Notes: a model not told the origin generated them from the letters alone. 64,000 nt of DNA from Eubacteriales bacterium (GCA_045643945.1 JAZRGA010000066.1:677-64676), one strand, 5' to 3'; counted from the first letter of the stretch, positions 30,974 through 52,589 are shown. Numbers and translations are program-made.

Positions 30974-31102
30974 TTTTCTCCTTTGAGTGGTTTTAGATTT
31001 TTAATCTATGTATATAATAGCATATTTTTTTTTAAAAAGCAACACTATTTTTTCAACTAATATTATTAATTTTCACAATTTTTGTGATATTCTACTAAAA
31101 AT

Positions 31103-31165: not shown

Positions 31166-34100
31166 TTAACCAAGCAAAAGCCTTAAAAGCTCCGCCAAGC
31201 TTTTCTTTTTGATAACGAACCAAGCGAGTGAAAATCCGCCTATACCCGCAATCGCCACAGAGCCTACCGCAATACCCGATATTGCTCCGCCCGAAAGCTT
31301 CTTTGCCTCAAGCTCAGCATCGCAAATATCGCACAAGCTATCGCCGTTTTCGTCTGTGTGGAAGCCTGCCGCTCTTGTAACCTCGTTGCATACGTTACAA
31401 ATATAATCACAATCGTTATCGTAAATATGCTCGGCTCTCTCGCCCTGCTCATATCCGCAATCAACACAAAGCGTTCCGTGCGTACAAGTAGCACCGTCAA
31501 GCCTATGAGCCTCTCGGGATATTTCAACAGAGCAGCAAGCATGCGCCTTTATATGAAATTCACCGTCCGCAATATAGGTAAATTCATTACTGCTATGCAC
31601 GGCACTGTCGATATCACCGTAAGCCGTTCCACAATGCTCACAAAGTGCGGGAGCTGCACAGGTTGCCGTTCCTCCGCTATGATACGCCTTACCGATATAA
31701 AGGTGACAGCAGGAACGGAAAACATCGTGCATTGATACGTTATCCTCTCTAACCAAATATTCAAGCTTATCGCTTGCGTGGCTTTGAGGGTCTATCTCTC
31801 CGTACTGAGTCTTACAAAGCTCGCATACCGCCTTATCCGTACAAGTAGCCTTACCGCCGCTATGCTCCTCTATCCAAGATGCGCCGCAGCAATTATAAGC
31901 TATTCTGTGCTTGGTTGCGTCATCCTTATCAACTACGCATACAGGAGCGCTTTCGTGATTAGACTCATCAAGCACACCGTAGGGCGCTTGACATTTTTCG
32001 CATTTTGCGAGATTTGCGCAGGTCGCAACTCCGCCAACGTGGGATTCAAGCTCGACCTTTCCGCAGCAAATATGCTTTTTACTATGCTCTTGAGCATTAT
32101 CCGCTATCTGCGAATACTCAAGTACGCTCGAAGAATGATTGTCGGGGTCAAGCTCTCCGTATCGCCAATCACAATGCAAGCAAAGGGCAATAGTTGTGCA
32201 GGTTGCGTTTTCCTTTGCAACGTGCGCCGAGGTTCGTATTACCTTTCCGCAGCAATTTGCAAGCTCCAAGTGAGTCATATGGTCCTCGGGGTTTACAACA
32301 ACGGTAGTTCCATTACTTGTATGCTTTGTATAATCATAATCTCCGTAAAGCATTCCGCAATTTTCGCAAACTGCAAGCGACGTGCAATTAGCAGAGCCTC
32401 CTATGTGCGCCGCCACTCTCGTCGTGTTGCAATATTCGCTATTACAATCGGTATCACAAGCCGAATCGTAAACGTGAAGAATATTATATTCACCGCTTGA
32501 ATCGTAATTATTGAGCGAATAGAGATAGCTTACGTCATTACCGCTCGCATCGTGTACCACTATCTTGCTTACGTTTATCCTGCCTCGCTCGGCATCAATT
32601 TCAAACTCGACGTCGAAAAGCGTATGTCCGAGCAACAAGACCTCGCCCGCTCTCATAACTATATTTTCCTTGTTGAACTGAATATCGGCGCTATCTAAAT
32701 TTATCGAGGTTTCCTTTACAAGCATAGTTATACGTCTTTGCGCTATGACCTCTGCGCTCTTTGTCTTACCGTTGCACTCAACCGAAACGGTGTATTTTCC
32801 CATCTCGTTGATGCTATCGACCGCCTCATCGCTATCATTGGTTATACTAACGGTAAAATCGTATCTTTCAAGTATGGCCCTCTCGGTAGCCGTTCCCGCA
32901 TACCAATTGCGAAGCGACCAGCTTATAACAGCCGAATATCTGCCGCTTCTTGTCAAAACCGCAGCATAATCGTTGCTTGCCAATGAGTAAAGCGAGCCCT
33001 TAACTACATCGTAGATTTTAACTCCGTTTTCATCGTATATCTCTACGGTATATTCATAAAATTCTCCGTATTCCTTTGCTACGCCCGGAGCTTTCCAAGA
33101 AAATACAACCTCAAATTCTCCGTCCTTACCCTCGTGAACGTATTTTCTGTCTATCGGAGTAGGAATTTCCATTGGAGAAAGGCTTATGTAAATTCCTTGG
33201 CTTTCGCAATTATAATTTCCGCTTATACCAAGCTCATCGTGACAGTAGCCGTAATAAACAAGATAATAATTTTCACGGTCAGGACACTCGGCAATAGGAT
33301 AATCAGCTCTTAACGACAGATCTATTATTATATTTGCGCTCTCAACACTATCACCGTCTGCAAGTCCGTCGACTCTCCACTCAATCTGAGATGCAGAATC
33401 GATGCAATAATACACCTTATCATTATTCACTATCGTTTCAACGTTTTCGGGAACAATAGGCAAAACCGTCAACTGTTTTTTCGCAATTTCAATTATCACA
33501 TCGCAGGATGCGCCAAGCATATTCTCGGTCGGCGCAGAAATTGCTCGAAGCAAATATATGCCTGCATTCTTAGGTTGACCGTCTATTTTCTTAAGGCTCG
33601 ACGCCTTTTCATCATAATAATCATACTCACCGACACTGTACCACTCAAAGCTAAGAGCGGTATCGAAATTAACCTTAAAATGCTCCTTTGTCGGTATTGG
33701 TATGCTATCGCCATAGGTAAACTCGGTAGGATAATTCTTGTTCTCTATTACTACCTTATTTGCGGGAAGAATAAACGCGCTTACGGTATTTCTCGAAAAT
33801 ACAACAGTTATAGCCTTTTTATATTCGCTATATCCGTATGTATCACGCGATATCTCCGCACTAAGACCAAGAGTATATTCTCCGACGCTTGCGCTACTTG
33901 AATTTGCATATTTAACTATCAACCACTCGTTCGAAAGCGCCTCGCTTGCATCGGTGGTGTAATCGGAATCAAATATAGCCGTTCCGTCATAAAATTTATA
34001 AACGTCCTTAGGTGTCACGGTTACGGTTATCGGATTTATAACCAATATTTCTTTATAAATATATTCCTGACCCTCAAAAGCGCCCTCACCTATAAGATGA

Positions 34101-36952
34101 ATATCATATTTTCCTACTCCAAGAACGGCGGTAGGTACTTCATAGGGCTGACCGTACCAATCATAGCTTAGCTCATAATATTTTTCGCCCGTTTCGGAGT
34201 TTATAAAGAAAGCGGTATATTCATCACTGTCAAGTCGGGTATTGAGGAGCAAATCATAAGGTGAAACCGTCTGACCGTCAAAGCTCTTTTCAAGCTTATC
34301 CACGCCAAAATACTCTTGAATATTATTCGAAATAATTATATAACTGTCGCTTAAGGTTACGTCGCCAAGCGTTATAGTAGCTGTAAAATCTATACGGGGT
34401 ACGTTTTGAATGCTCGAGCTGCTATATATCCTCTCGGTAACACTCGCCTCGGCAAGTCCCTCTTTTCCGCATATCTCGCAGATTGCGTGAACGTGGCAGG
34501 AATATTTATACCCTCCGCTTGGTTGCCAAATAAACTCAACAGGGTCCTTAGCAAAAGCATTATAGCTATGCGCCTCGATTTCTGCGCGCTCGCTTTCATC
34601 GTTAAAATATACAGTTCTGCCATCGCAGGTAATTGCCATAAATATCTCAGGACCGTTCATATAAGGATACGGGTCAACGCCTATCTCCTGTCCCGCTTTT
34701 TTTCCACTGCCTCGCCAATAGCTTGCGTAAGCATATCCTACCTCACCGCTCTCAAACTGAGCAAGAGTCATTTCTCCCTTTTCGGAATTTGTGATATCGG
34801 ATACGCAAAAGCTATTAGCTACGCTTGCCTCGCCGTTGCCCGAAAATACGAGAAATTCGTTTGAGGAGTTATACGCGCCATAGGTTATAGAGCCTCCCGA
34901 AATTGAGGACTCTGCACTCGCAATACCTATATGTGAGCCCGCAAAGCCGCTCTCATCTGTTGCCGTAGCAATCGAATCAAAAACACTTACGTTCTTTATA
35001 TCGACGTCGCCCGCCTTACCGACAAGCACGCCCGCTCCGAGTTTTGCACCAAAATTTGAATTACGCACCGTAAGATTTTCTATATAAACCCCGTCCGCAA
35101 CGCCAAAAATGCCCGCATAATCACCGTCTGTGATATAATTTATATTTTTTACGGTATGACCGTTGCCGTTAAAGGTAAGAGCATCAAACGGTTTTTCCTC
35201 TGTTCCTATGGGTATAAAATCAATATTTTCAAAATCAAGGTCTGCCTTAAGAGTTACGATATTCGTGTGACCCCAAAATTCTCCGTAAATATTTTTTTGC
35301 AAGCCACTGTTAACGTACTCTGCTAAGAACAAAAGCTGACCCTCGTTATGTATCTCGAAGTCGCTCATAGCGCCTCGACTTATCTGAACGGGTGGCTCAT
35401 AGTGAGTTTTATCGTAAATACATATTCCATTATCGTCAAAGCTATGATTTATGCGTGAAACACTTTTATTTCCGCACTCACATTCCGATATACAGGTATT
35501 ACCAAAGTGACAGTCACTTATATTCAGTCTTTCCTCGCAATCAAGGCAAAGAGTCCAGTGAACGTCCTTCTCACCGTCAAAATAAAGCTCTGCGGATATA
35601 TTTTCGTGATTGTCCCAATCGGGTCTTCCGTAGGACTCACCGCATTTTTCGCAGATTGCGGCTTTTGTGCAGGTTGCATTTTTAAGAGGTGTATGAATAC
35701 AGTCAAGAGCTATCTGCTCACCGACAAAGCTTAAAGAATATCTATCGCTTCCTCTTTGCTCCCAAAAAACGCAAACACTGTCGTCATCGGAATAGCTATC
35801 GGGTAAGTCAAAGCTTACACTGCCCGAGGATATCCTTACGGGAGCATCGCCACACTCATAATGCTTAACGTTTCCGTCGGAATCCTTTATCATAAGAGAA
35901 ATATAAATATCGGTTCTGTTGTTCGTAACTATGTCGGTAGGAGCATTCTGATATTTAATTTCGACAGTACCGTTATTTACGTCAAAAATATCCGCCGTAA
36001 AATCACTTTCTACATCCGACCTATATGCGAGTCTGTAGGCATTGTTACCTACCTCCTCCACGAATGCAATTTTGTCGGTTTCGATATTAAAAGCAAATCT
36101 ACCCGCTATATCCGTACTCACCGCACTCTTATAAACGACCTTACCGTTTTTATCAACAACTCCGACAAGATTTCCGTATTCATCATTAAAGCCGCTTCTA
36201 AGCCACCAATCGACGTTAGCCTTAGTGGTTATATGCGTTGCGCCCATACCGGGAGCGCCGTTATAATTTGCGACATAATCGTGAAGCTCCTTTGCGGAAA
36301 GCGGAAAAATCTTGCTTGAATTAAGCATTACAGCGCTTTCGCTCTGCACCGCCGCATAATCAACTACGGTATCTGTTTCCCACGCATATCCATAATCCTT
36401 GGAATATCCGAACATTCCCTCCATTTCAGATGCAACGTCGGTTTTCGTTATATCGCGCATCAGGCTAAGCTCTGTATGAGTGAAGATATTTTCCTGAGAG
36501 GAAAATTTAGCCATTACGCTCTCGGTATATATGTTTTCGATATCCCAATGCTCTATCCAAATGTCTTCCTCATTAGAAAACCTTTGATTTAAGGAAATCG
36601 CATTTTCGGTAAGCAAAAGCATTGCTCCGCCGTTGCCGTTATTATCCTTATTAGCATCAAGGACACGGCAAAGAATAGGCTCATATTCTCCGCTATCCGA
36701 ATTATATACGCTACCAAAGTAAACGTATGCGGTAGGCGCAAGATAATATCCGTCCGCGCTTTGAACCCTTACGGGATTTCCTATAACACTGCTTGCATCA
36801 AGATAGATGCTTGCGCCCTCTGAATTAACCGTTCTTTCCGTAGCAAAGCTCGGAGTCAAGATATTCAGAAAAAGCATTCCGACAAGCAATAACGTAAGAA
36901 CAGAAAGCACTATTCCCCTTTTTACTCCGTTTTTATTGATTTTATTTTTCAT
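31166..36952 (-). CDS. Giant cell-surface protein, 1928 aa, with DUF6273-like, GLUG-like, YDG-type Ig-like and Cys-rich repeat modules and a C-terminal TM anchor
   Basis: Signal peptide VLSVLTLLLVGMLFLNILTPSFA. WWLRSG motif. GLUG-like IPIGTEEKPFDALTFNGNGHTVKNI...YAGIFG. KFYDGTA modules. Six C-terminal Cys/His modules. TM helix ISGIAVGSVAIAGIGGFSLAWFVI followed by KKK. CGGAGG SD. Confidence 0.9.
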   Translation of the reverse strand: MKNKINKNGVKRGIVLSVLTLLLVGMLFLNILTPSFATERTVNSEGASIYLDASSVIGNPVRVQSADGYYLAPTAYVYFGSVYNSDSGEYEPILCRVLDANKDNNGNGGAMLLLTENAISLNQRFSNEEDIWIEHWDIENIYTESVMAKFSSQENIFTHTELSLMRDITKTDVASEMEGMFGYSKDYGYAWETDTVVDYAAVQSESAVMLNSSKIFPLSAKELHDYVANYNGAPGMGATHITTKANVDWWLRSGFNDEYGNLVGVVDKNGKVVYKSAVSTDIAGRFAFNIETDKIAFVEEVGNNAYRLAYRSDVESDFTADIFDVNNGTVEIKYQNAPTDIVTNNRTDIYISLMIKDSDGNVKHYECGDAPVRISSGSVSFDLPDSYSDDDSVCVFWEQRGSDRYSLSFVGEQIALDCIHTPLKNATCTKAAICEKCGESYGRPDWDNHENISAELYFDGEKDVHWTLCLDCEERLNISDCHFGNTCISECECGNKSVSRINHSFDDNGICIYDKTHYEPPVQISRGAMSDFEIHNEGQLLFLAEYVNSGLQKNIYGEFWGHTNIVTLKADLDFENIDFIPIGTEEKPFDALTFNGNGHTVKNINYITDGDYAGIFGVADGVYIENLTVRNSNFGAKLGAGVLVGKAGDVDIKNVSVFDSIATATDESGFAGSHIGIASAESSISGGSITYGAYNSSNEFLVFSGNGEASVANSFCVSDITNSEKGEMTLAQFESGEVGYAYASYWRGSGKKAGQEIGVDPYPYMNGPEIFMAITCDGRTVYFNDESERAEIEAHSYNAFAKDPVEFIWQPSGGYKYSCHVHAICEICGKEGLAEASVTERIYSSSSIQNVPRIDFTATITLGDVTLSDSYIIISNNIQEYFGVDKLEKSFDGQTVSPYDLLLNTRLDSDEYTAFFINSETGEKYYELSYDWYGQPYEVPTAVLGVGKYDIHLIGEGAFEGQEYIYKEILVINPITVTVTPKDVYKFYDGTAIFDSDYTTDASEALSNEWLIVKYANSSSASVGEYTLGLSAEISRDTYGYSEYKKAITVVFSRNTVSAFILPANKVVIENKNYPTEFTYGDSIPIPTKEHFKVNFDTALSFEWYSVGEYDYYDEKASSLKKIDGQPKNAGIYLLRAISAPTENMLGASCDVIIEIAKKQLTVLPIVPENVETIVNNDKVYYCIDSASQIEWRVDGLADGDSVESANIIIDLSLRADYPIAECPDRENYYLVYYGYCHDELGISGNYNCESQGIYISLSPMEIPTPIDRKYVHEGKDGEFEVVFSWKAPGVAKEYGEFYEYTVEIYDENGVKIYDVVKGSLYSLASNDYAAVLTRSGRYSAVISWSLRNWYAGTATERAILERYDFTVSITNDSDEAVDSINEMGKYTVSVECNGKTKSAEVIAQRRITMLVKETSINLDSADIQFNKENIVMRAGEVLLLGHTLFDVEFEIDAERGRINVSKIVVHDASGNDVSYLYSLNNYDSSGEYNILHVYDSACDTDCNSEYCNTTRVAAHIGGSANCTSLAVCENCGMLYGDYDYTKHTSNGTTVVVNPEDHMTHLELANCCGKVIRTSAHVAKENATCTTIALCLHCDWRYGELDPDNHSSSVLEYSQIADNAQEHSKKHICCGKVELESHVGGVATCANLAKCEKCQAPYGVLDESNHESAPVCVVDKDDATKHRIAYNCCGASWIEEHSGGKATCTDKAVCELCKTQYGEIDPQSHASDKLEYLVREDNVSMHDVFRSCCHLYIGKAYHSGGTATCAAPALCEHCGTAYGDIDSAVHSSNEFTYIADGEFHIKAHACCSVEISREAHRLDGATCTHGTLCVDCGYEQGERAEHIYDNDCDYICNVCNEVTRAAGFHTDENGDSLCDICDAELEAKKLSGGAISGIAVGSVAIAGIGGFSLAWFVIKKKSLAELLRLLLG

Positions 36953-36986
36953 ATTTGACCTCCGAGCTTAAAATTTAATGCCGTAT

Positions 36987-39900
36987 TCATTCGGCGATGT
37001 CTGTTGCCTTAGATTTTTTTCTTTTTCTTCTTATTAAAAGAACAGTAAGCGCGCCAATACCAAAAACAGATACAAACGCTACGGGAATTATCCACACAAG
37101 ATGGTCGAATTTCTCAATATCGTAAGCTTGAGTAATTATTCCCTCATAATTACCCTTTCCCTCAATTGTCAAAACGCCGTGTAAGCCGTCCTCGCTTATT
37201 TTATAGGAAACTGTATAATCCTTATCAGCGATAAGCGCTCTGCCGTTTTGAGTTAAGGTAAATTCAGGATTTTCATTGCCGTCGGCATTTAATTCAAAAT
37301 CCAATGCCGAAAGCTTGCATTTTTCAATTGTGAAATTAACGATGTTAGTACCTACGCACTTTCCGTTTTCGGTAGCAACAATAATAGCGCTTGCAGTACC
37401 CGCATCGACGTTATTAATATAGCTTACGGTATAATCCGTACCCTCGTTAACCGATATTTCTCCGTTAATTGCAATTTGAGGCTTCTTTTCATTACCGTCA
37501 TAAACAAGCTCGTCCTCTTTGGCGTTAATCGAAATATCTGCGCTTGAAAGATTAAGCGATATAAGATGAACGTATGCCGTCATATTATCCAAGGTGGCAA
37601 CTACAATTCCGTTAGCACCGCTATCTCCGCTAAGTGCGCCATCCTCGGTTATGCTTGCGCTTCTCGACACCGTATCAACCTTCCATTCAATACGCGAATA
37701 TGCGCTTGAATTTTTATTAAGGGTTACGTATTTATTACCCATCTTAAATGCAAAGGTAAGCTGCTTTGCATTAGAATCGGTATCTATTGCATCTATCTCC
37801 TTGCCTTGATAAAGTATTACCGCCTCAATGCCCTCCTTACCCAATATCTCATTGGTAAGAGTACAACCAAAGGGCATGCTTTCATTTCCTGCTCCGTCGG
37901 TAGCCTTTATTCTAAGATGCTGATACGCCAAGGACTCATCAACAGATACATTACCTAAGAAATTGCCCTCCTTATCGGCATATACAACGGTGCTAAGCCC
38001 GTCAAGTATGCTTATCTCAACCCTTGAATACGCCTCAGTGCTACCGCTTACGGTAATGCTGCTGCCGCTAAAGAGTCCGCCTCCCTGATGAGAGGTAATA
38101 AACAATCCGGGAGCGTTTGTATCTATCGAGAACTGATATACCGCGCTAAAGGAATCCATCGTTTCGTTAATTCCCTCAACTCTTAAGGTATATACTCCGT
38201 CCTCAAGTCCGTTAAAGCTAATATCCGAGCCGTTCCATTCCACCTTTTCTCCGTTACCGAGAATATAAGCGCCCGATACGATGCCTTCAGTGCCTTTTAT
38301 CTTTACGGTTACAGAATTTTTATTAACCGTATCGACCTTAATAGAGGACTCACCAACCTCAACGCTCACCGCTCCGTCAATAGAGAACTCTGGCTTTGTT
38401 TCGATAGGCATAACCATTGTAAGCTCGTTAGAGAGAATAACCTCGGACAAAAGCCTTGAGCCGTCCTCGCAAAGAACGTAGCTTTGAGCCGATATTACAT
38501 ATTTTTTGCCCGCCTCAAGTCCGTAATAGGTGGTAACTCCGTTATCATCTGTGCTTGAATATCTACCGCCAATAACTGCGATAAGGTTGCTTTCATTCTT
38601 AAAGGACTCTGCGCTAAGGTCGATATCCTTATACACGGTTGCAACGTAGCCGTCTGCCGTTTTCTCATATACTGTAACCATAAAGCCATCGTAAAGGTTA
38701 TCACAGTCAAAGCTTGCCGATACAGTGTAATTGCCGTTCAACTGAATTTGAGCGCCGCTTAATGCCTTTGGCTGGTTAGGGTTAACGTAGCTAAATTCGG
38801 ACTCGGTCATAGGACTTGCGATATCGTTGCCCGACGCATCCTTTACCTTGCCTATTGCCTTAAGGGTATATTCACCCGTAGGAAGATTTTCGGGGATTTT
38901 TACGTTTATATTAGAAACATCCTCGTCAAGAGTAGCGCCCTCAACGGTTGCAAGCATATAAAGCGCTCCGTTTTTATCCTCTGCGTATATACCAAGCTCG
39001 GAAAGAAGCTTAAGCCCCTTGCCCGATACGGTAGCTATGCTCAAATCGTTATTAAGCTCTACACCGCTAAACGACGTAGTTCTCGCAATACCCAAAACCG
39101 AAAGCTCCGACGAGGTAACCGTGCTTACCGTTATCTCACAATCAAAGCAGCTTGGGTCAACGAATGAGATAGCCACGGTTGCTCTTTTTGAATTTTCATC
39201 GTAAGTGAATATAGCGTTCGTGCCTATGTTTGCAACGTGGTCGGCTTCATAAGCGGGGTCGAACCATTCAAGCTTATAATCACTGCCCAACACCGAAACC
39301 GCTATATTGTTCTTATAGTCCTGAGCCATAAGCAAATTATCCGCATCATAGCCTATAACGAGCATTCCGTCCTCGTTAGGCTCGGAGCTAAGAACAAATC
39401 TATGCTCACGCCCGTCCTCGGTAGAGTTTATTATAGTATTTTCAAGTCCACCGTTTTCGGATACGTTAGTTATATCCATATAAAGGGTCTGTCCGCTTGC
39501 ATCACTGTAAAGCGGGATAGCCTTTAGCTGAGCAAAATTTCTCGGTGTGGGAACGTCGTAGGAATCTCCAATAGAAACGTCAACGCTTCCGCCCCAGTAA
39601 TACTTAACACCAAAGCCTATTCCTATAATTTCCGCAGAGCCCCATACCTTATCACTGTCAATTCCTATTCCGACAGAGCCTAATCTCAATCCTCCGATTA
39701 TCCAAATCTTATCGGGAATTTTAAGAGTAGCCCTTGCATATCCGCAGAAATAAATACCGCTCGACCTTTCTTCAACTATTACTCCGCCCTCGCCTATTAT
39801 CGCATCAAGGATATCAATTCTGATACCGAAGGAAAGGCTGAAATTGGGATACCAATATACGCTACCGCCAATATAATCGATAAGCGTTATTCCCGCAATT

Positions 39901-42941: not shown

Positions 42942-42977
42942 AATCACAACCTCCCGGGTTATCTGTGTTAATTTTAT

Positions 42978-45900
42978 TTACGCGGCAACAATAATAATTT
43001 TAAAGTAATCTCTGTTTTGGTTAACTACATAAAGCGTGTAAAGACCCGCTTCAAGCGCCCCAATACTCAACGACTTATCTAAGGTATAGTCACAAAGCGT
43101 CAAAGCGCCGTTTTTCATTTGGGCTACGGTGTTGTCACCGCTCTTTAATATTGCCTTATAATACAAGCCTTGGCAATCCACCGAAAGTAAAAGTTCCTTG
43201 CCTGCCGTAACCACTATACCCTCATCCCTCGAAAGCCTCTTATCACCGTATTCAACGAAAGGCTCGTAGAAGGAAACTATGCGAAGCTTACCCTCGACCA
43301 CCGTACTGTTTCCCGCCTCGTCTGTTGCCATATACTCGACGGTGCTAAGTCCGATTTCGTCTGTATTCTCGGTAAACCTTACCGAAAGCGTTAACTCTGT
43401 CGACTCTGCATCGAATGCGGCAAAGTTATTCATAAGCTCGTTTTCAATTGCTTCCCTATCGGTTTTCTCTCTTATCGATATGATTTTTTTATCTACGATA
43501 ATTTCAGGTCCTACCGTATCGGGAATATTTATTTTTGAAAATTGATGCGTTAATACGTTTCCGTATTCATCTGTCATCACGATATACGGCTGTATTCCTC
43601 CGTATATTTCGGGAACGGTAATCTCATTCCACTCATTTGCCGAAAGCTCAAGGCTTATTCCGCCCGATAGCTCTGCGCTCACACGTCTGTTAGGCTTAAC
43701 AAATATACTGTCGCCTATCCCGATTTGAAGCGATGCTACGTCGTCGATAAAATCAGTACCGTCAGGTGAAAGACTGTATTTTACCGAAAGCTCCTCGGTG
43801 ACTATTTCTGTAATTTCAAAGGTAATACCGCTTGAAAGTCCCGTCATATCAACAAATTCAAGTGAATACTCACGGTTTTCGGTATAGGTTGCGGTGTAGT
43901 AATATTTACCGTAACGCTCCTCGGTTGCATATCCGCCAACCTTGGTTATGACTCTTTCATTTGACTCCACCGTAATTTCAACGCTTCTGCCGTTCTTAGC
44001 AAGCCTGCGACTCACTATTTGAAGCTCGGGAGCATTCTTGTCTATAACGCTTACCGCTCCAAGCTTAACAGTAGCAGAGCTTCCGTTCTCGGCAACACCC
44101 TCAAGAATAATCTCGGAATGATTATCGGAATAAGTAACAGTTACGACGTTACCCGTAACAGCGAAGCTAACCGCCGTTTCATCGTATATGCTTTGAACGA
44201 AGATATTCTTAACGTCCTCGGTAAAGTATATTACCGCCGTTACGTCCTTGTTGGTAGCCTCAAAGGCGTTATTAGCCGACCACTCGACTCCGTCACCCTT
44301 AAGCGCCATTTCCTTAATAAATATCTCGCTTACCGAAATATCAACGCTTGATATTATCTCCTCACCGTTATAAATAAGCTTATACATTACCGAGTATTCA
44401 TCGTTGCTTGAATATTCAACGTAAGGCTTACCGTAGTATGCACTGCCTATATCCGACTCTATCTTAACAATCTCTGTGCCCAAGAACTCATAATGCTCTG
44501 CCACCTCGGGCATCAATATATATGCTTTAACAGAATCGTTTCCGATAGGAACCTTTACAACCCTCGGCGAGGGAGCTGCTCCTACGTTATCGACCTTAAA
44601 GGCTATCGACGTTGAATTATTGCTTGCATCTACAACGAAAAGCGAAAATTCAGCCTTTTCACTTACAGTAAGCAATCGGGAATTAACCGTTACACCGTCT
44701 ATTACGTCGCTTACTCCCGTTTCGTAATCGGGTGCTTCGGCGTAAAGTCCTCTCTTAATAAAGATACGCACTCTGCTCATATCCACCGTTTCGATAATAA
44801 AGCGGTAAGATGTGCTCCATCCGAGAGAGTCAAGCGCCTTAGTCATATCCGCTCGATTTCCGAGATATTCAAAGACTCTATATCCCGAATAATTGTTAAG
44901 CGCATTAGAGTTTCTTGCGTTCTCTACCCTTACAGAAAGCTTTTCATCGGAATAAACACCGTTCAGGTTGGAAAATGCCAATATTTGAACGTTTGGCGTT
45001 TCAAGGTCCTCGCCCTTTTCTTCGAACAAGGTAGGCGGCTCGTAAAGCTTAATATCAAGGCTTACGGCTATATCGCTATCAAGTCCTATCGATTCGTTTC
45101 CGAGTAATGCCGCTATATCCTCCTTTTTGAAGATATAAGTGCTATCGCCTCCGGGAACAAAGGTAAAGCTTGGCATTTTGCCTGTGTATTTATCCGTAAG
45201 AGCAAAATTGTTATCGGTCAGATAAACTGTTACACTTCCGTATCTGTATTTTTCACCGTTCTCGTCTACGTTGTATTCCTCGGTATCATAGCTCCAAGCA
45301 AGATACGGCGCAGGCTCAAGAATATTATCGACAGTGATATAATGCATCACTTCATATCCCTCGGAGTCGATATATCTGTAAGAAAATCTTGTGTTTTTAT
45401 TAACCGTTACAGATACACTCGAGGTATTGTTTGACTCAACGCTCATTATTGCGTAATCGTTAATATCGACGAATATCGGTCGTCCGTCGCTTCGGCTGAG
45501 TAAAACGGTTACGGGCATTGAGGTATCCTTTACCGTCGAAAGGCTTATCCGAGTTGTAGGGTCTTTCGACTCTGTAATCGAATAATCAAGCCTTATATTC
45601 TTACCGTAGGCATCACGGACCAATATCCGGTAATTACCGTTTTCAAAAATTCCCATTTCAATAGTTGACGTGTAATCAAAATTTCTGAATGAAAGCGAAA
45701 GCACCGCTCCGTTTTCCGTCATATTAACCGATTTCACAATATAATCGGTATAATAAAGCTCAACCGTACCCGTACTTGAATATTTATCACCGAATATATT
45801 ATAGCATTCAATGGTAAAGGAACGAACAGCTCTTGTTCCTGCGGGATTTTCTGCCGTTGCTCTCGGATTTGCCACGCTAAAGCTAAAGCCACGCTCACCT

Positions 45901-48900
45901 ATATATGCTCCGCAATATCCTATACTGTTTTCCTCACCTTGAAGCTTAACCGTGTAGGCGTTGTTTCCGAGGTCGCCTCCGCTAAAGGTTATCGTTGCGT
46001 CCTCCCAACGGATAAGCTCGAAATTATTTCCGTCCTCATAGTCAACCGTTGCCGAGGTCGAATACTGTGAATAGTTTTGCGACGTACCTCCCCAATATAT
46101 ATCATTAGTAACTATATTGAAAAGATTGTACTTAAGCTCGGTATTAGAAATCATCAAGGTTTCGGAAAGCGAATCTCCGTCCTCGGTGTTTTCGTATAAA
46201 TAATTTTCAAAGGACAAAAGATTTTTACCGAAATACTTTGGTTGATTGTAAGCAATTCTCCAAGATAGGAAGGAATCACCGACTACATACGGATCGTCGA
46301 AATAATTTCCGTAATAATCGATATTATATACATACTCGTACGCTTCTCCGCCCCAAACCTCATATCTTTTATGATCGCCTATCTGCGGAGCAACTATTGT
46401 AACTCCTCCGTACTCGTCGGTTGCAACGAATACCGCAGTGCAAAGCTCGTGATATTTCGGGAAGTCCGAGGTATAGCTGTTTTGCGTAAGGTCTGCAAAA
46501 TCCTCGACACGCAAGCCCGATTTTATAACCTCAAGTCGGTCCGCATTAGGATAATACATTCTCTCGGTAAGCGTATTGCCGTCATACTGTCCTACGTTAA
46601 TTCCGTAATTTGACCAGATGTCGACCCTCACGTTTCCGCTACCGTTCATCGAGTATGCGCTTTCGACGAAAAATCTTATACTGTGAGCATTTATCATTCC
46701 GTCCTGCTGCGAAACCTTATGCGACGGACGGTAATCGTCTATCGCAATATTAAGCTCGGGAGAATAATCGGTTACTATTATAGTAAACTGTCTAATCGGA
46801 GAAACGTATCCGTTTGAAAGCTTTACCTGATAGCATATCGTATTTACGCCCTTGACAAGGTAAAGGTCCTTAAAGCCGTCAATTCCCTTTGGAATATTTT
46901 GCGCATCATAAATATCGTCAGTACCCGTAAGGTAAATCAAGCAATCTTCATAATTTTTTATAAAGCCTTGATCGTTTATTTCCTTTGCGGTAGGCTCGCT
47001 AAGCATATTCCAGAACTTAAAGCCCTCAAGCGTGCCAACCTTTATTCCCTCGTAGACCTTTTCGCTATCGGGAAGCCTAAGACTCATACTAAATCCGCTT
47101 ACACCGTAGGAATAGAGTGCAAATACGTTGCTTCGCATTTTCTCTCCGCCAACGGTAACCGAAATTCCTACGCTTGAGTATGGCTTATCCTCTGCCTCAT
47201 GCTTTACCCAAGAATAACCCTTTTCCTCATCTACCGCAGTTATATCCGCCTTGGTTTGATAAGAATAAGACCAAAGACCTGCATTATCGGCTACCGTTGC
47301 ATCAAGCACAAGCCTTGAGGATTCATAAACGTCAATAGCTCCGCTATTGCTTATAACAGTAACCTTAAGGTAATAAGCGCCCGTTTTATAGTATTCGCCC
47401 GAATCTGTAAGATTTCCTACCGTAAAGAACTGTGAATTGCTTGCAAACAGTCCGCTTTGTCTTGCGACGGTTATCTGCTCGTTTCCGCTCTCTCCCGTCC
47501 ATATAAGCTCGGCATAGGAGCTTGCAAAATCAAAATCGAGCAAACCGAAATCGGCTCTGCGCATATTTGTAATCGAATAATGTATCTGCGTCTTACGCAT
47601 AGGGCTTACACCCTTGCTCGTCGCATTAAATTTATACGGGGCGCTACCCTTATCGGCATTTGCTACAACCACCGCGCCGTCCTTATCAACTATCTCACCA
47701 AAATCAACACTGTAAACGGTTTTCTCGGTATCATAAGGAGAAGCGTATCTGACAACGTAGTATGTAGAATCCTTAGAATAGCTGCCTATATCTGCCGCCT
47801 CATAAAAATACTGCGACGCTCTCGGAGTCATATCTCTGTATCCGTTTTCAAAGGATACACGAAGCTCTCCGTAATATTTAAATAGCTCGTAAAGAACGCT
47901 TTCGGAATTAAGCGTATATCCCTCGTTCACAAGCTCGGGAGCGGACACCTCGATATACTTGTCTACTCCAAGCCTTACACGGTACCAGCTTAATCCCTCA
48001 AAGCCAAGCACGTTAAAGGCTTCACCGCTTTTCACCACGGTAACGTAGGAATAATCCGAGCCGTCGGGAGTAAGAGTTACTCGGGTATAGCCGTCAACCC
48101 CTGCATGCGACACCCTTGGACCTGTAACGGTAATTTTATGATTTGTGCTTACCTTATTTAAATCGCCCTCATATTTAACTTCCGTCATAGGCTTCTCAAG
48201 GCTTACGCTAATACTCTTTGATATAGGCTCACTTTCGTTTCCGTATTCGTCGAACGCCTTTACCCAAACGGTATCGTTATAAACCTTGTCAAATTCCTCT
48301 CCGTTACCGCCGTAATGAAGACTTATCTTCTCGGTTATATCCTCGCCCGACGTAAATTCAAGCACCTGCCACTCAGCATTCTCAACGCTTGCGCCCACAC
48401 AATAAAGAATTCTCGTTATCTTACTGTCATCAAGCGCATTTATCGACAAATCAACGTCGATTTTCGTGTTATTATCAACGGCTTTCATTTCCTGAGATAT
48501 AAATTTAACCGTTGGAGCAGCTCCGTCGATAAAATAATCTATCACTCTCGGCGCTTCTGTATCGGTACTGTTTCCTACCGTATCACAAGCATTAACGCTT
48601 AGATAAAGGTCGTCGATATAAATATTTTCTCCGTTTATATACAGATGCAAATATTTATCTGTAGCCTTGTTGGCAATAGAATACACGCCAACAGGCACAG
48701 ACTGATTTTCGCAAAGCTCGAATGCTCCCGTATATCCGCTCTTAGACTCGGGAGGCGTTGCAGAATCGGAAAGCAGATATTTAACGCTTGCCTTTCCTAC
48801 TATTCCACCGCCTAAGCTTAGAGCCACCTTAGTTCCGAGCATTCCCGCAACCGTCTTATAATTTTCTACGTCGCAGGCCGAAACCAAAAGGCTTATATAA

Positions 48901-50816
48901 TGCTCGACACTACCGTTATCAAGCACCTCATCCCGCTTTGCAAAGCTTGATGCCTTAACGGTGGGAGCGCTTAAATCCGCATAAAGTATATTCGAAGGTA
49001 AAACTACGTTCGGATATGCCGTTTTGTCGGATATTTCATCACTCATTCGAGTTATAATAATTCTCGGCTCGACCTCATCTCCCTCGGGAACGTCAAGCTT
49101 TACGCAATCCTTAAGAGGTATATCCTCAAAAATCAATACCCAGCCGCGTCGGTCAACTCCGTAAACATCCTTTTTTTCATACTCGGATATATCCGTCGCT
49201 CTTGCGCTTAGAGGAGAGCCGTCCGACCTTAAAATATTAAACTCTATCTCAACCTGCCTTGCCTCGTCCTCGGTAAGCTCCTCGTTTATATAAACGTAAG
49301 CCGTCATCGAACCAAGGGGACCGACAAGCATATCGTTTAGACTCGTTTTATTTATCTCCTCTTTATCCTCTCGCACCTCAACCACGTTGGTATTATAGAT
49401 TTCAACCTCCACCGCCTCAAAGGTGTTACTGATAAAGCTTTGATTTCCAAATGACCAGTTGGTTATACTCGATACGTTTATTCCGTTACCCGCATAATCA
49501 CAGATAGCCGTTGTGTTTTTTCCGCATCTCCAATAATTAAATGATGACATCGAAATAATTCTGTTATTATAATCGACTGTATCGTAAGCGCTTACATACA
49601 TTTCATCCGCAAGGTCAATAGCTCCGTGAGTCAAATATCTCCACTTATTATCAAAGCTCGCCCTTAATATTCGGTTAACTCTGAAATTTTTATAATTATA
49701 AAGACCGATATCTCCACGGAATATCCATTTTTCGCCCTCTCGCTTTTGCAAATAAAGTCGAACGGTATCTCTTTTGTTATTGGAAAGATCAAGAAGCTCA
49801 AGCTCTATCCAAATATTATCAAGGTCCTTGCTTACGTCATCACTTGCAAACCTCAGGCTTTCGTTAAAGGATACCTCAAGCAAGAGATCCGCCGTATTAT
49901 CTGCCCTCACCTCTCGCTTAAGCTCTATATGCTTAACCGATGGAGCGGTATCGTCGATAAGCGTAATATGGAAATCCGTCATTACGTTATTTACCAAGCT
50001 CGAATTGTTGTCGGCATTGAAATAAATTATCGTCCACGTATCCAAATCGCTAAGCGGAAACTTTACCGTTAGCCTTTGCGGCTCTCCGTCAGTAACTCGT
50101 CCGCTTGCAGTTGCCGAATTACTTCCGTCGCCCGACACGCTTATCGAGCCTCTACCCGATAAAAGCGTTGCTCCGACCTGAACGTATATTTGATCGGCTC
50201 TAAGTCCCAACGAATTACTTAAATATCCCGAAAGGATATCCTTAAATTCGCCGTTTCCGTCCGTATCCTGCCAATCGTCCAAAAGCCTTGTGCTTATTCC
50301 TCCGTTTGTTACAGTAAGCTCGGAATGAAGCATTTGTGAGCCCTCGGCAAGAATTCCCGATCGCCCCTCTCTAAAGGGTAAATCGTTTTTAACGGTCATA
50401 TCATCATTGTGGTCTATCCATACCGTATAGTCAAACCACGGCGCTATTGAAGCTGTGTAATATGGACTTTGATTTTCAAGCTTATAATTATGAGTGCCGT
50501 ACGCTCCAAAGAAATCTGCGCTTAAGCTTTCGTAATTATCCGAGTTATATATCGGATAGGTGTCAACCGATATATCCACGTCGTACGGATTTTTGCTAAC
50601 CGTCGGAATTTTAATATCATCAAGTGACGTCGGGGGCTTCACCTCGTTTTCCCGAAGCTCACCGCTCTCGCCACCACTGTCCGCAAAAATCTCTGCAGCA
50701 GAGCTTACAGGCATTATCGACATATTAAATAGCATCGTCAGCGCAAGCGTCGATGATAAAAATATCTTGAAAAATCCTTTCAACCGATTTTCGCGGCTTT
50801 TTTTCATACTTATCAT
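42978..50816 (-). CDS. Giant secreted/surface protein, 2612 aa, with no recognisable C-terminal anchor
   Basis: Signal peptide FKIFLSSTLALTMLFNMSIMPVSSAAE. Repeated D-x-x-A/G-P-x-V/I/L domain-start motifs (DDTAPSVK, DLSAPTVK, DGAAPTVK, DKNAPELQ, DTVGPEII). Ends ...YFKIIIVAA with no TM helix plus basic tail. ACGGAGG SD. Confidence 0.9.
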   Translation of the reverse strand: MISMKKSRENRLKGFFKIFLSSTLALTMLFNMSIMPVSSAAEIFADSGGESGELRENEVKPPTSLDDIKIPTVSKNPYDVDISVDTYPIYNSDNYESLSADFFGAYGTHNYKLENQSPYYTASIAPWFDYTVWIDHNDDMTVKNDLPFREGRSGILAEGSQMLHSELTVTNGGISTRLLDDWQDTDGNGEFKDILSGYLSNSLGLRADQIYVQVGATLLSGRGSISVSGDGSNSATASGRVTDGEPQRLTVKFPLSDLDTWTIIYFNADNNSSLVNNVMTDFHITLIDDTAPSVKHIELKREVRADNTADLLLEVSFNESLRFASDDVSKDLDNIWIELELLDLSNNKRDTVRLYLQKREGEKWIFRGDIGLYNYKNFRVNRILRASFDNKWRYLTHGAIDLADEMYVSAYDTVDYNNRIISMSSFNYWRCGKNTTAICDYAGNGINVSSITNWSFGNQSFISNTFEAVEVEIYNTNVVEVREDKEEINKTSLNDMLVGPLGSMTAYVYINEELTEDEARQVEIEFNILRSDGSPLSARATDISEYEKKDVYGVDRRGWVLIFEDIPLKDCVKLDVPEGDEVEPRIIITRMSDEISDKTAYPNVVLPSNILYADLSAPTVKASSFAKRDEVLDNGSVEHYISLLVSACDVENYKTVAGMLGTKVALSLGGGIVGKASVKYLLSDSATPPESKSGYTGAFELCENQSVPVGVYSIANKATDKYLHLYINGENIYIDDLYLSVNACDTVGNSTDTEAPRVIDYFIDGAAPTVKFISQEMKAVDNNTKIDVDLSINALDDSKITRILYCVGASVENAEWQVLEFTSGEDITEKISLHYGGNGEEFDKVYNDTVWVKAFDEYGNESEPISKSISVSLEKPMTEVKYEGDLNKVSTNHKITVTGPRVSHAGVDGYTRVTLTPDGSDYSYVTVVKSGEAFNVLGFEGLSWYRVRLGVDKYIEVSAPELVNEGYTLNSESVLYELFKYYGELRVSFENGYRDMTPRASQYFYEAADIGSYSKDSTYYVVRYASPYDTEKTVYSVDFGEIVDKDGAVVVANADKGSAPYKFNATSKGVSPMRKTQIHYSITNMRRADFGLLDFDFASSYAELIWTGESGNEQITVARQSGLFASNSQFFTVGNLTDSGEYYKTGAYYLKVTVISNSGAIDVYESSRLVLDATVADNAGLWSYSYQTKADITAVDEEKGYSWVKHEAEDKPYSSVGISVTVGGEKMRSNVFALYSYGVSGFSMSLRLPDSEKVYEGIKVGTLEGFKFWNMLSEPTAKEINDQGFIKNYEDCLIYLTGTDDIYDAQNIPKGIDGFKDLYLVKGVNTICYQVKLSNGYVSPIRQFTIIVTDYSPELNIAIDDYRPSHKVSQQDGMINAHSIRFFVESAYSMNGSGNVRVDIWSNYGINVGQYDGNTLTERMYYPNADRLEVIKSGLRVEDFADLTQNSYTSDFPKYHELCTAVFVATDEYGGVTIVAPQIGDHKRYEVWGGEAYEYVYNIDYYGNYFDDPYVVGDSFLSWRIAYNQPKYFGKNLLSFENYLYENTEDGDSLSETLMISNTELKYNLFNIVTNDIYWGGTSQNYSQYSTSATVDYEDGNNFELIRWEDATITFSGGDLGNNAYTVKLQGEENSIGYCGAYIGERGFSFSVANPRATAENPAGTRAVRSFTIECYNIFGDKYSSTGTVELYYTDYIVKSVNMTENGAVLSLSFRNFDYTSTIEMGIFENGNYRILVRDAYGKNIRLDYSITESKDPTTRISLSTVKDTSMPVTVLLSRSDGRPIFVDINDYAIMSVESNNTSSVSVTVNKNTRFSYRYIDSEGYEVMHYITVDNILEPAPYLAWSYDTEEYNVDENGEKYRYGSVTVYLTDNNFALTDKYTGKMPSFTFVPGGDSTYIFKKEDIAALLGNESIGLDSDIAVSLDIKLYEPPTLFEEKGEDLETPNVQILAFSNLNGVYSDEKLSVRVENARNSNALNNYSGYRVFEYLGNRADMTKALDSLGWSTSYRFIIETVDMSRVRIFIKRGLYAEAPDYETGVSDVIDGVTVNSRLLTVSEKAEFSLFVVDASNNSTSIAFKVDNVGAAPSPRVVKVPIGNDSVKAYILMPEVAEHYEFLGTEIVKIESDIGSAYYGKPYVEYSSNDEYSVMYKLIYNGEEIISSVDISVSEIFIKEMALKGDGVEWSANNAFEATNKDVTAVIYFTEDVKNIFVQSIYDETAVSFAVTGNVVTVTYSDNHSEIILEGVAENGSSATVKLGAVSVIDKNAPELQIVSRRLAKNGRSVEITVESNERVITKVGGYATEERYGKYYYTATYTENREYSLEFVDMTGLSSGITFEITEIVTEELSVKYSLSPDGTDFIDDVASLQIGIGDSIFVKPNRRVSAELSGGISLELSANEWNEITVPEIYGGIQPYIVMTDEYGNVLTHQFSKINIPDTVGPEIIVDKKIISIREKTDREAIENELMNNFAAFDAESTELTLSVRFTENTDEIGLSTVEYMATDEAGNSTVVEGKLRIVSFYEPFVEYGDKRLSRDEGIVVTAGKELLLSVDCQGLYYKAILKSGDNTVAQMKNGALTLCDYTLDKSLSIGALEAGLYTLYVVNQNRDYFKIIIVAA

Positions 50817-50870
50817 ATTGATACCTCCGTATGAACTTTTTTACATTTATTATATATTAAATATTATGCA

Positions 50871-51224
50871 TTATTTTTTATGATTTGAGCGACATTTGCA
50901 TATGCCGAGCAATTCCTCGCACTTCTCATAATAAGCGCATTGAAAGCAATTAGAATCCTCACCGCTTTCCCCCTTGTAATACCTGCACGCCGTCTGCATA
51001 GCCGTTACAAACGGAATACCTTTATCGGTATAAACGGGATTATTAATAAAGCTTGGATATATTTCCATAGGGTCGCACAAAGGATTTAATCTGTCTATCT
51101 CCTCATAATATCCGTAATATATCTCAAAGCTCTTGCCGTAAGCCGTTATCACCTTGTAAAGCTCGCCCTCCTTATGCTTTGACTTGCTTGGGGGTGACGC
51201 GCTTTCGAAAATATCATCAAACAT
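50871..51224 (-). CDS. Small Cys-rich hypothetical protein, 117 aa, first gene of the giant-ORF operon
   Basis: AAAGGAG SD 6 nt before the ATG. C-terminal cluster NCFQCAYYEKCEELLGICKC. Lies 54 nt upstream of the 2612-aa ORF on the same strand. Confidence 0.7.
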   Translation of the reverse strand: MFDDIFESASPPSKSKHKEGELYKVITAYGKSFEIYYGYYEEIDRLNPLCDPMEIYPSFINNPVYTDKGIPFVTAMQTACRYYKGESGEDSNCFQCAYYEKCEELLGICKCRSNHKK

Positions 51225-51275
51225 AATCGACTCCTTTCACAAAAATAAAAATCTGCCATAAGTTATTACTCTAAC

Positions 51276-51284
51276 ATTATAGCA
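51276..51284 (-). promoter_or_regulatory. Candidate extended -10 promoter element (TGCTATAAT) for the small Cys-rich gene and giant ORFs
   Basis: Minus strand reads TGCTATAAT (51284..51276), about 50 nt upstream of the ATG at 51224. The -35 is poor (TATACA). Confidence 0.4.
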
Positions 51285-51365
51285 GATTAATTTCAATTTG
51301 TATAGAAAATAAATTCATTATTTTTTGCATTATTTATTGCAAAAAAATTTTAAAAAATTTGCATT

Positions 51366-52589
51366 TTAAAGAATAAGCGCAAGCTCCTTTTTGCTCGTTA
51401 AGCCATACTTATTAACTATTCTCAAAATATCGTGATTTACCGTCGACTCGGAAAGATGTAGCATTGCGGCTATCTGCTTTGCGGTAAAGTTGAATGCGGT
51501 AAGCTTTGCTATCTCTCTGTCCTTAGATTCAAGGTCTATCGCAACATATTTATCCTTAACCTGACCCGAAAGCCTTGCCCAACCTACGTTATATACGTTA
51601 TTCAAGGATTTTACCGCAACAAGCGCATTCTTATCTTGAATGGATATTCTTTGCTCCAAAAGCTCTCCGAAATGACGGATATACTCGGCAAGAAATCCGT
51701 ACATACCGTCGGCAAGCGCAAGCGATATCGCCTTATCCATATGCATTATTGCTCTTTCCTTAGCCCCCGAATAATACCAAGCAACGGCGCAGGACATACG
51801 CAAATACATTTCAGGGAGAATGGTTTTGTCAATGACCGCCTGAGATATCATCGGCTCTATGGTGTTCGGAAGCATACGCATAAGCGCAAGCCCCTCAATG
51901 CCCTCAAGCTTAAATTGCTTAGTAGCTATCGCATATGCCGACATATATAAATATTTAATGTAAAAAACCTTTGCGGCAGGGTGTGCGTCGGGTGGGAGAG
52001 CCTCAAAGCTGCCTATTTTAAACCATTCGGGGTAGCTCTTATTATCATAAATCGAGCTATCAATTATCGCAAGCGCTAAGGACACAAGCTCACGGTCATG
52101 CTCGTCCTTACACGGCGCTTCGCATATATGGTGCTTTGCCTCCTTCCAAAGAAAGATATCCCCTCTCCATATAGCGCACTGAGCCAGAAGCATTCCTCCG
52201 CCCAAAACCGCATAAAATCCCGAATGTGAGTTTAAAAAATATCTCGCCTGCTCGTAAACCTTTTCGATTTCGCCCCGTCTGAATGCTATTTGCGCCTCAA
52301 ACAATGCGTGAGCCTCGGGTTGATTTATAAGCATCTCCGCACACTCATCTGCTCCGCCCGCCTTATTATAAAGATTTGTCATATCAAGAAATGGCGACTT
52401 TCTCGGCATAGGTAGCCGTGGCTCGTCCTTCGTTCTTCTTGCATTGGGAAGAACTGCGGTAGCGGGAATTTTCCATACTCGCCCAAACCTTACAGCTCCT
52501 TTAATTCTCTCCTCGTTGCAAAGCATCTGCACTCTGCGAGGACTAACGTCCCATTTTTTTGCCGCCTCGTTAACAGTAATATATTCCAT
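51366..52589 (-). CDS. Transcriptional regulator: N-terminal MerR/excisionase-type HTH, a helical-repeat middle and a C-terminal LuxR/GerE-type HTH
   Basis: N-terminus YITVNEAAKKWDVSPRRVQMLCNEERIKGAVRFGRVWKIP. C-terminus REIAKLTAFNFTAKQIAAMLHLSESTVNHDILRIVNKYGLTSKKEL. Confidence 0.8.
   Translation of the reverse strand: MEYITVNEAAKKWDVSPRRVQMLCNEERIKGAVRFGRVWKIPATAVLPNARRTKDEPRLPMPRKSPFLDMTNLYNKAGGADECAEMLINQPEAHALFEAQIAFRRGEIEKVYEQARYFLNSHSGFYAVLGGGMLLAQCAIWRGDIFLWKEAKHHICEAPCKDEHDRELVSLALAIIDSSIYDNKSYPEWFKIGSFEALPPDAHPAAKVFYIKYLYMSAYAIATKQFKLEGIEGLALMRMLPNTIEPMISQAVIDKTILPEMYLRMSCAVAWYYSGAKERAIMHMDKAISLALADGMYGFLAEYIRHFGELLEQRISIQDKNALVAVKSLNNVYNVGWARLSGQVKDKYVAIDLESKDREIAKLTAFNFTAKQIAAMLHLSESTVNHDILRIVNKYGLTSKKELALIL

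Follow-up and report, generated by a model that had tools for sequence, protein, structure and literature searches.

Giant surface adhesins of Gram-positive bacteria built from immunoglobulin (Ig)-like repeats, the class that includes Bap/Esp, SiiE-like proteins, Ebh and GspB/SraP, combine a Sec signal peptide with long strings of β-sandwiches and usually vary in repeat number. Here we describe a related locus at positions 31166–52589 of a 64,000-nucleotide (nt) stretch of DNA from an Eubacteriales bacterium (GCA_045643945.1, JAZRGA010000066.1:677-64676; the whole stretch is called the window, and positions are counted from its first letter). Three consecutive genes encode giant proteins, G1, G2 and G3, that share the Sec signal peptide and the β-sandwich strings, and the likeness extends to a Bap-type Big_6 domain in G2, the envelope anchoring of G2 and G3, and Foldseek structural matches to GspB and SiiE. 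The giants differ from this class in having no LPXTG/sortase signal and no internal sequence repeats (BLASTP detected none, and inspection by eye shows only the short Cys/His repeats of G3), and G1 and G2 have fixed lengths and family alignments that are almost gap-free across orders. G2 differs further in its obligate anchorless partner gene and in a conserved non-repeat core of ~1100 amino acids (aa) that belongs to no known family. In kind, the locus is a Gram-positive giant β-sandwich surface protein system, with a new assembly principle as a residual possibility. With about even confidence, we interpret it as encoding, in a gut Clostridium, a giant surface assembly of two subunits, G1 and G2, to which lineage-specific accessories have been added. 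Its five open reading frames (ORFs) are:

51366..52589, minus strand: Reg407, regulator (ORF call)
50871..51224, minus strand: Cys117, small Cys-rich protein (ORF call)
42978..50816, minus strand: G1, 2612 aa
36987..42947, minus strand: G2, 1986 aa counted from a GTG codon, or ~1984 aa with the likelier ATG
31166..36952, minus strand: G3, 1928 aa

A sequence-only reading of the window had joined these co-oriented ORFs, all of which are present in the ORF listing and its translation, into one unit, and had proposed a multi-component structure rather than three independent adhesins. That proposal stands for G1 and G2, on the basis of adjacency, co-divergence and anchors that occur only on G2; it does not stand for the five-gene unit. 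A systematic scan of GTDB species representatives for G2 yielded 65 loci, and in 62 of these tblastn located a co-oriented G1 homologue next to G2 on its upstream side; in the remaining three the contig ends too soon to tell. In each of five G2 neighbourhoods, the gene directly upstream (2381-2662 aa) was a G1 homologue; the similarity spans nearly the whole gene in four of them and, in the most distant one, the last ~1000 aa. The reciprocal scan, seeded with G1, returned 22 loci (21 on contigs already known to carry G2 and one cut by a contig end) and no G1 without G2. G1 and G2 are adjacent and co-oriented in every informative locus. No constant linkage to the pair was found for G3, Cys117 or Reg407: G3 follows G2 in only about 19 of the 65 loci, all in the clade nearest the window, and Reg407 and Cys117 are exchanged elsewhere for other regulators, so the five genes as a whole are not a conserved unit.

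The pair is widespread, occurring in at least 65 GTDB species. G2 has more than 100 full-length homologues, with identities down to 36%, and a filter-free search of 1.84 billion representatives matched G2 31-1180 to 533 clusters (50% identity; 174 at E <= 1e-30). A single G2 cluster holds 1193 database sequences. The ~1100-aa core is N-terminal in nearly all full-length G2 matches and is mostly covered by one continuous match. Carriers include Oscillospiraceae, Acutalibacteraceae, Lachnospiraceae, Candidatus Fimenecus, Pelethomonas, Agathobacter, and Acetivibrio and Ornithomonoglobus MAGs (metagenome-assembled genomes), along with the isolates Bianquea renquensis and Hominisplanchenecus faecis. 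The first three families dominate in the gut and are mostly uncultured, and their means of attaching to particles, mucus or other cells are poorly understood. ORF sizes run from 2367 to 2768 aa for G1 and from about 1970 to 2600 aa for G2, and the gap between the two genes from -77 to +184 nt.

G1 and G2 also diverge together. Across 49 loci (1176 locus pairs), their pairwise identities are correlated with a Spearman coefficient of 0.97, and G1 is the more divergent of the two in 99.8% of comparisons. In the 53-54 species compared, the slowest-evolving regions are the G2 head (aa 100-400), G2 aa 700-1100 and the C-terminal half of G1, and variation is greatest in the N-terminal ~300 aa of G1 and in the C-terminal stalk and anchor of G2. 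Some genomes hold two or three divergent G1–G2 pairs (L022 and L029 in the MAG SIG649; L025, L041 and L073 in one MAG; L052 and L058; L046 and L071). Such co-resident pairs diverge as units, each being nearer to pairs of other genomes than to its co-resident.

The two proteins differ in how they end. These are the parts of G2 on which the following analysis draws:

37026..37109, minus strand: C-terminal transmembrane anchor of G2 with an RRKRKK tail; homologues have SLH or dockerin at the same place
41913..42785, minus strand: N-terminal head of G2, aa ~55-345, predicted β-supersandwich; numerous polar and aromatic positions are invariant
39543..40550, minus strand: Gly/hydrophobic block of G2, aa ~800-1135, modelled as a helical hairpin followed by long β-hairpins
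37860..38099, minus strand: Bap-type Ig domain (Big_6) in the variable stalk of G2, by profile comparison with PDB entries 7dm0/6m3a (E = 2e-13)

As the earlier reading had it, G2 and G3 each close with a transmembrane helix and a basic tail (aa 1947-1974 and 1886-1914, respectively), and its statement that no LPXTG is present was borne out by a motif search of the three giants, in which LP.T[GAS], NP.TG and [ST]PKTG were all absent. Sortase-anchored LPXTG (MSCRAMM-type) adhesins were accordingly rejected as a classification: the motif is missing, and G2 and G3 end in the helix and basic tail only. Among 54 complete G2 homologues, about 47 have an identifiable anchor: a transmembrane segment with a basic tail, SLH (P0095-P0112 and L005) or Dockerin_1 (P0087, P0090-P0092, P0094 and L007). 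Among the proteins of the window there was no match to SLH, type I dockerin or cohesin; SLH was found only in distant G2 homologues and Dockerin_1 only in some. The remaining seven tails are unclassified and may be further anchor types; they occur in L045, L046, L049, L057 and L070 (Fimenecus/Acutalibacteraceae) and in L054 and L059 (Lachnospiraceae), with ...YSQACWLARIFGFIRCILGITRHYDY and the Lys-rich ...KKVKKKYKKKLNRKTGYLKKTMKIK as examples.

G1, the largest giant, had been described as anchorless, and this holds for the whole family: G1 has no transmembrane segment, and none of ~53 complete homologues has one at the C terminus (maximum Kyte–Doolittle value, KD, <= 1.04). All G1 homologues instead share a C-terminal end motif, G[YF]YT...Q.R..[YF].[IFL]..[YS][VI][EK]-COOH, also written as GxYT..Q.RDYF.I.I.V-COOH. 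The signal peptides claimed for all three giants are seen as hydrophobic N termini in G2 and G3; the h-region of G1 is weaker, yet its counterpart in about 50 homologues is a clear signal-peptide-like h-region.

These observations bear on the possibility that the giants are functionally related and co-transcribed but physically independent adhesins, with G1 released to the medium or matrix, G2 and G3 on the cell, and no heteromeric complex. All three are Ig-rich and have signal peptides, like classical adhesins; no paralogy or shared interaction module was detected, and G3 is clearly dispensable. Such independence fits poorly with the strict adjacency of G1 and G2 in every informative locus across several orders and with the constancy of their sizes. 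It also leaves aside that anchors occur on G2 homologues only, never on G1, despite repeated swaps of anchor type, and that conservation is highest away from the distal tips, where ligand binding would lead one to expect it. We consider this explanation unlikely and continue to favour a two-subunit assembly. Paralogy among the three giants had been considered separately and was rejected (no similarity by BLASTP; hhalign of the family profiles gave probabilities of 18% and 9%).

The AlphaFold2 (AF2) model of G1 851-2050 (predicted local distance difference test, pLDDT, 80) is all-β and forms a chain of β-sandwiches. Foldseek returned only generic multi-β-sandwich matches for it (TM-scores 0.06-0.28), to α2-macroglobulins, CD109, the GhpA base, the S-layer assembly domains of SbsB, Sap and HPI, and SpyCEP. 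The best E-values went to α2-macroglobulin/complement MG-domain proteins such as bacterial A2M and CD109 (CD109, 7.7e-11; Salmonella A2M, 5.9e-9), a consequence of the long run of MG-like β-sandwiches; G1 differs from that family in the TM-scores of 0.06-0.10 and in having no lipoprotein signal and no PBP1C neighbour. As a classification, α2-macroglobulin was rejected because G1 has no CxEQ motif and the 851-2050 model is all-β, without a helical thioester domain or α/α barrel. The G1 family profile had no significant match in PDB, and Pfam and NCBIfam gave nothing above cut-off in G1. The sequence-only reading had weighed the prospect that structure searches would return only generic Ig folds throughout; this was the outcome for G1 851-2050 and not for the G2 core.

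Together with the anchors, these matches raise the question of a two-component S-layer-like or coat lattice, in which G2, tethered to wall or membrane, would form the base and G1 the lattice subunit on the outside. The locus shares with SLH S-layer and dockerin-borne cellulosomal proteins of Clostridia the SLH or dockerin ends of distant G2 homologues, SLH domains ending a large part of the G2 family, and a weak fold similarity of G1 to S-layer assembly domains (SbsB 4aq1, Sap 6hhu/9g93 and HPI 8cka); G1 and G2 are, moreover, both acidic and Cys-poor. The fold matches are, however, generic, with low TM-scores (TMt 0.12-0.28), and G2 of the window differs from those proteins in ending in a transmembrane helix, in having no cohesin, carbohydrate-binding module (CBM) or catalytic module, and in belonging to a two-gene unit whose constant core accepts interchangeable anchors, dockerin among them. 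A lattice is also hard to reconcile with the two or three divergent pairs in several genomes and with a combined 4600 aa per unit, which would be very costly. Dedicated TetR, LuxR, XRE or two-component regulators precede the loci, which suggests conditional rather than constitutive expression. We judge the lattice explanation distinctly unlikely.

We modelled the core of G2 (31-1180) with AF2 from an alignment of 65 sequences (mean pLDDT 69.9). In the model, a confident N-terminal domain precedes Ig-like domains, after which come a helical hairpin and long β-hairpins. The head reached a pLDDT of 80-90; among its polar positions, K, D, D, T, S, R, Q, H, R, D, D, E, N, H, D, S and N are invariant. 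Foldseek matches of the G2 model against PDB were weak and generic: OpgD (8x18) came top (E = 3.4e-5, TMt 0.22), the YidC P1 domain reached TMt 0.52-0.55, and the other matches were the accessory supersandwich domains of GH94 and GH38, that of cyclic glucan synthase, and tandem Ig folds. A search of the model against viral structures gave generic FN3/Ig matches only. Pfam and NCBIfam had nothing above cut-off in G2; the Big_6 match of its stalk, at 26 bits, falls just short, and in the comparison of the G2 profile with PDB the Bap Ig domain was the sole match. When the isolated head and Gly/hydrophobic block of four homologues each were searched against Pfam at E <= 10, no match was found.

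These fold matches invite the explanation that the locus encodes a surface-displayed glycan-processing enzyme complex, with the β-supersandwich of G2 as a catalytic domain like that of the GH186 β-1,2-glucanases OpgG/OpgD. In its favour, OpgD heads the Foldseek list, followed by the GH94, GH38 and cyclic glucan synthase supersandwiches, and the G2 head has unusually many invariant polar residues. Yet the TM-score to OpgD is low, the best superposition is with a non-catalytic domain (YidC P1), and supersandwich domains are mostly accessory or binding modules. The head has no MdoG (Pfam) or CAZy-type match even at that permissive threshold in the four homologues, and no conserved sugar-transport or sugar-utilisation genes lie nearby. 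We regard a catalytic role of this kind as very unlikely. The HExxH motif was not found in G1, G2 or G3.

The Gly- and hydrophobic-rich block that had been noted in the middle of the second giant is real, and is the most conserved part of the family: G2 aa 901-1000 has a mean identity of 59% over 54 species, the highest of any segment. In the AF2 model its pLDDT is below 50 at aa ~880-990 and 60-65 beyond, and it has no Pfam or PDB match. A conserved, hydrophobic Gly-rich block that AF2 leaves unmodelled, in one of three consecutive giants with sizes reminiscent of TcA, TcB and TcC, could be taken for the pore-forming or translocation element of a Tc/ABC-toxin-like or other membrane-inserting delivery machine. 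The signature search, which covered the window proteins and 15 G1 and 5 G3 homologues, found no TcA (VRP1/TcdA), TcB (TcdB_toxin_mid, SpvB) or TcC (RHS repeat) signature in them, and neither Pfam nor NCBIfam showed RHS, VRP1, TcdB-mid, MACPF or any other toxin signature. The modelled parts are instead all-β and Ig-like, G2 and G3 are anchored to the producer itself, G3 is dispensable, and no polymorphic C-terminal toxin or immunity gene is present; PADLOC and PHROGs were negative, giving no defence or phage relationship for the giants. A delivery machine is, in our view, extremely unlikely.

The two-subunit assembly that we favour builds on what was observed, namely how the genes are linked, the topology, where anchors occur, the pattern of conservation and the classes of fold; its conjectural parts are the binding of G1 to G2, the interface between them, the geometry of the fibre, its ligand and the logic of its regulation. 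G2 would be fixed to the envelope by its C-terminal transmembrane helix (by SLH or dockerin in relatives), and its variable Ig-like stalk would project the conserved ~1100-aa N-terminal core, consisting of the β-supersandwich head, Ig-like domains and the Gly/hydrophobic block, away from the cell. G1 would be exported by Sec and, having no anchor of its own, be held on the cell by G2. The contact would most plausibly be between the conserved C-terminal half of G1 and the G2 core, which would leave the variable N-terminal region of G1 at the distal tip. The assembly would be a long β-sandwich fibre, probably serving adhesion to, or capture of, a glycan-type gut ligand. G3 would be a third, independently anchored adhesin-like giant gained in one clade. 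Expression would start from a promoter upstream of Cys117 and be controlled by Reg407, a separately transcribed HTH_17-LuxR protein, together with Cys117, a cytoplasmic protein with four Cys residues.

Several points weigh against this interpretation. Linkage and co-divergence could also result if two functionally related proteins were co-inherited without touching each other. That the Gly/hydrophobic block models poorly on its own may be due to the shallowness of the alignment (65 sequences) or to a new fold rather than to a partner-dependent interface, and the modelled residues amount to 2350 of about 6500. The glycan-binding idea is built on fold matches that are weak (TMt 0.22-0.55), and neither a CBM nor a CAZy signature turned up.

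As a bolder and more tentative proposal, in which we have less than even confidence, G1 and G2 could represent an undescribed, widespread class of heterodimeric giant fibre in which G1 is captured by the new ~1100-aa G2 core. The Gly/hydrophobic module could then be a new protein–protein assembly or membrane-active element, and the HTH_17-LuxR and 4-Cys pair a new switch dedicated to giant surface proteins. If the two-subunit model is right, it would offer a new way to display an anchorless giant protein on a monoderm surface, and the G2 head and the Gly/hydrophobic block would count as new domain families, two at the least. A full-text literature search of limited coverage, which does not prove absence, found no description of the G1–G2 pair, and no family in Pfam, NCBIfam, PADLOC, PHROGs or the PDB sequences covers G1, the G2 core or Cys117. 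The earlier remark that most of the ~6500 residues belong to no nameable family thus agrees with the near-silence of Pfam and NCBIfam, in which no family passes the cut-off. A 14-kb gene pair that is conserved across several orders and has no passing annotation beyond a single Ig domain is therefore a large blind spot. Because two cultured isolates, Bianquea renquensis NSJ-32 and Hominisplanchenecus faecis CLA-AA-H246, carry the pair, the model can be addressed experimentally. Even if the assembly model is wrong, the work provides a useful family definition and a corrected reading of Cys117 and Reg407.

G3 is composed of a weakly DUF6273-like N-domain, a GLUG β-helix (aa ~567-745), Ig-like modules, Cys/His repeats and the transmembrane anchor. 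The GLUG-like segment that the sequence-only reading had recognised is supported by a match of the G3 family profile (aa 593-724) to the GLUG β-helix of 3n6z (E = 3.1e-5), the only match of G3 in the PDB profile search, and phrog_30905 covers G3 aa 567-662 (E = 9.5e-8). The DUF6273-like domain that it had also named shows similarity, albeit weak (E = 0.007, below the Pfam cut-off), and BLASTP found no similarity between the G3 N-domain and the genuine DUF6273 protein of the window. That protein is a separate ORF at 62971..63990 on the minus strand with a clear DUF6273 domain (E = 8e-13). The YDG-type modules of the same reading were not detected by Pfam in any window protein. G3 shares the GLUG β-helix with GLUG/M26 IgA1-protease-like proteins and is, like them, a large Firmicute surface protein. 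It differs in having no HExxH, a transmembrane anchor instead of LPXTG, and six Cys/His repeats of no known family; Peptidase_M26 gave no match for G3. The repeats are tandem, each ~60 aa long, and occupy G3 aa 1499-1877 (31322..32458, minus strand). Their invariant positions are H, C-x5-C-x2-C, YG, D..NH and CC, and no Pfam family matched them; the repeats probably bind metal.

Reg407, which the earlier reading had called an HTH/LuxR-type regulator, carries two recognisable helix-turn-helix (HTH) domains. Pfam placed an HTH_17 (MerR/excisionase-type) domain at aa 3-46 (35 bits, above cut-off) and a GerE domain (PF00196) at aa 356-406 (26.9 bits versus a cut-off of 23.5), in addition to a sub-threshold match to Sigma70_r4_2. 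Residues ~50-350 had no Pfam or NCBIfam match, and neither database revealed an autoinducer-binding, receiver or MalT-type ATPase input domain. Reg407 thus resembles LuxR/GerE regulators in its C-terminal GerE HTH, and a palindrome overlaps its target promoter as with lux-box-type operators. It differs from them in the N-terminal HTH_17, in a ~300-aa middle region without known function, in the absence of an autoinducer-binding or receiver domain, and in its obligate 4-Cys partner of no described family.

That partner, Cys117, has no signal peptide and no transmembrane segment. Its four invariant Cys residues (C80, C93, C96 and C109) follow the pattern C-x12-C-x2-C-x12-C ahead of a basic tail, and none of the 118 homologue clusters of the family has a Pfam match. 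A Cys117-type gene always lies downstream of a Reg407-type gene, including ahead of genes other than G1 and G2. The view of Cys117 as an envelope component was therefore not borne out: being without a signal peptide and always accompanying Reg407, this cytoplasmic protein belongs to the regulatory module and not to the surface structure. A zinc-binding anti-sigma factor (ZAS) was considered and rejected, as Cys117 has no HxxxCxxC and no conserved His, and its partner is LuxR-type and not an extracytoplasmic function (ECF) sigma factor.

Reg407 lies upstream of G1 in about 15 of the 65 loci, and the Reg407–Cys117 pair is found in about 15 loci, among them L042, which has no G3; several loci with G3 are without the pair. 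In other loci a TetR protein, a two-component system or an XRE-type protein takes the place of Reg407. Judged by this distribution, Reg407 and Cys117 are accessory, lineage-specific additions to the giants. At L075 (8642-18086), a Reg407-type and Cys117-type pair precedes an unrelated 2567-aa giant that has only GLUG and Cys-repeat modules in common with G3, its Cys-rich modules being related to the G3 repeats. At L076 (8621-10372), such a pair lies beside small mobile-element-type genes (TnpV, NikA-like). The occurrence of the two genes together at L075 and L076 suggests a portable two-gene regulatory cassette.

The transcription signals of the window locus are:

52696..52724, minus strand: Reg407 promoter, sigma-70 type, TTGACA-17-TATAAT, 12/12 consensus (promoter scan)
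51241..51304, minus strand: promoter of the Cys117-G1-G2-G3 unit, TATACA-17-TATAAT with an extended -10 TG (promoter scan)
31097..31138, minus strand: intrinsic terminator closing the unit after G3, hairpin and U-run, -25.9 kcal/mol, z = -5.77

The description of a regulator-led operon was overstated, in that Reg407 has its own perfect sigma-70 promoter and a second promoter with an extended -10, spanning 51304..51276, precedes Cys117. The finer layout agrees with the earlier account. The gaps are 54 nt, 36 nt (30 nt with the GTG start of G2) and 34 nt, each of the three contains a GGAGG-type site, no terminator-like site occurs on the minus strand between G1 and G2 or between G2 and G3, and the terminator past G3 is supported by its folding energy. 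The GTG at 42947 is the mechanical ORF-call start of G2. We favour the ATG at 42941, giving 1984 aa, because its ribosome-binding site spacing (GGGAGG 8 nt upstream) and the length of the closest homologue, the database protein P0001 (1984 aa, 99% identical to G2), agree.

The -10 box of the Cys117 promoter lies just within an inverted repeat, AAATCTGC...GCAGATTT, with a T-run after it. The repeat is kept at the intergenic promoter between the regulator and Cys genes in 13 loci that have both (the window, L009, L010, L014, L018, L019, L029, L031, L035, L037, L042, L075 and L076), with compensatory changes in 4 of 9 pairs. Its arms vary compensatorily between loci (ATCTGC/GCAGAT, ATCCTG/CGGGAT and AACCGG/CCGGTT), and the -10 box is TATAAT or TATACT. 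L015, L016 and L026 are without the inverted repeat and have a classic terminator directly after the regulator gene instead. The repeat may be a palindromic operator that brackets the -10 box and transcription start, or it may form an RNA hairpin with a terminator or attenuator role.

Around the locus lie housekeeping genes (PdxK-like kinase, GntR-aminotransferase, GltD-like, PriA, Fmt, RsmB and RlmN), which places it on the chromosome; these neighbours are not conserved with the cluster. A housekeeping protein of the window is at most ~83% identical to that of any GTDB species representative, the nearest being uncultured Clostridia of the ruminant hindgut. Directly beyond the terminator, at 27923..30973 on the minus strand, lies a gene for a 1016-aa protein with a lipoprotein-like N terminus, collagen triple-helix repeats and an NlpC/P60 peptidoglycan hydrolase domain. 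A search of the 65 loci for this gene and the PdxK-like gene gave no matches, and by that comparison both are outside the unit. Another putative adhesin of the window is encoded at 18862..20400 on the plus strand, a 512-aa BspA-type leucine-rich-repeat surface protein (LRR_5, E = 4e-78).

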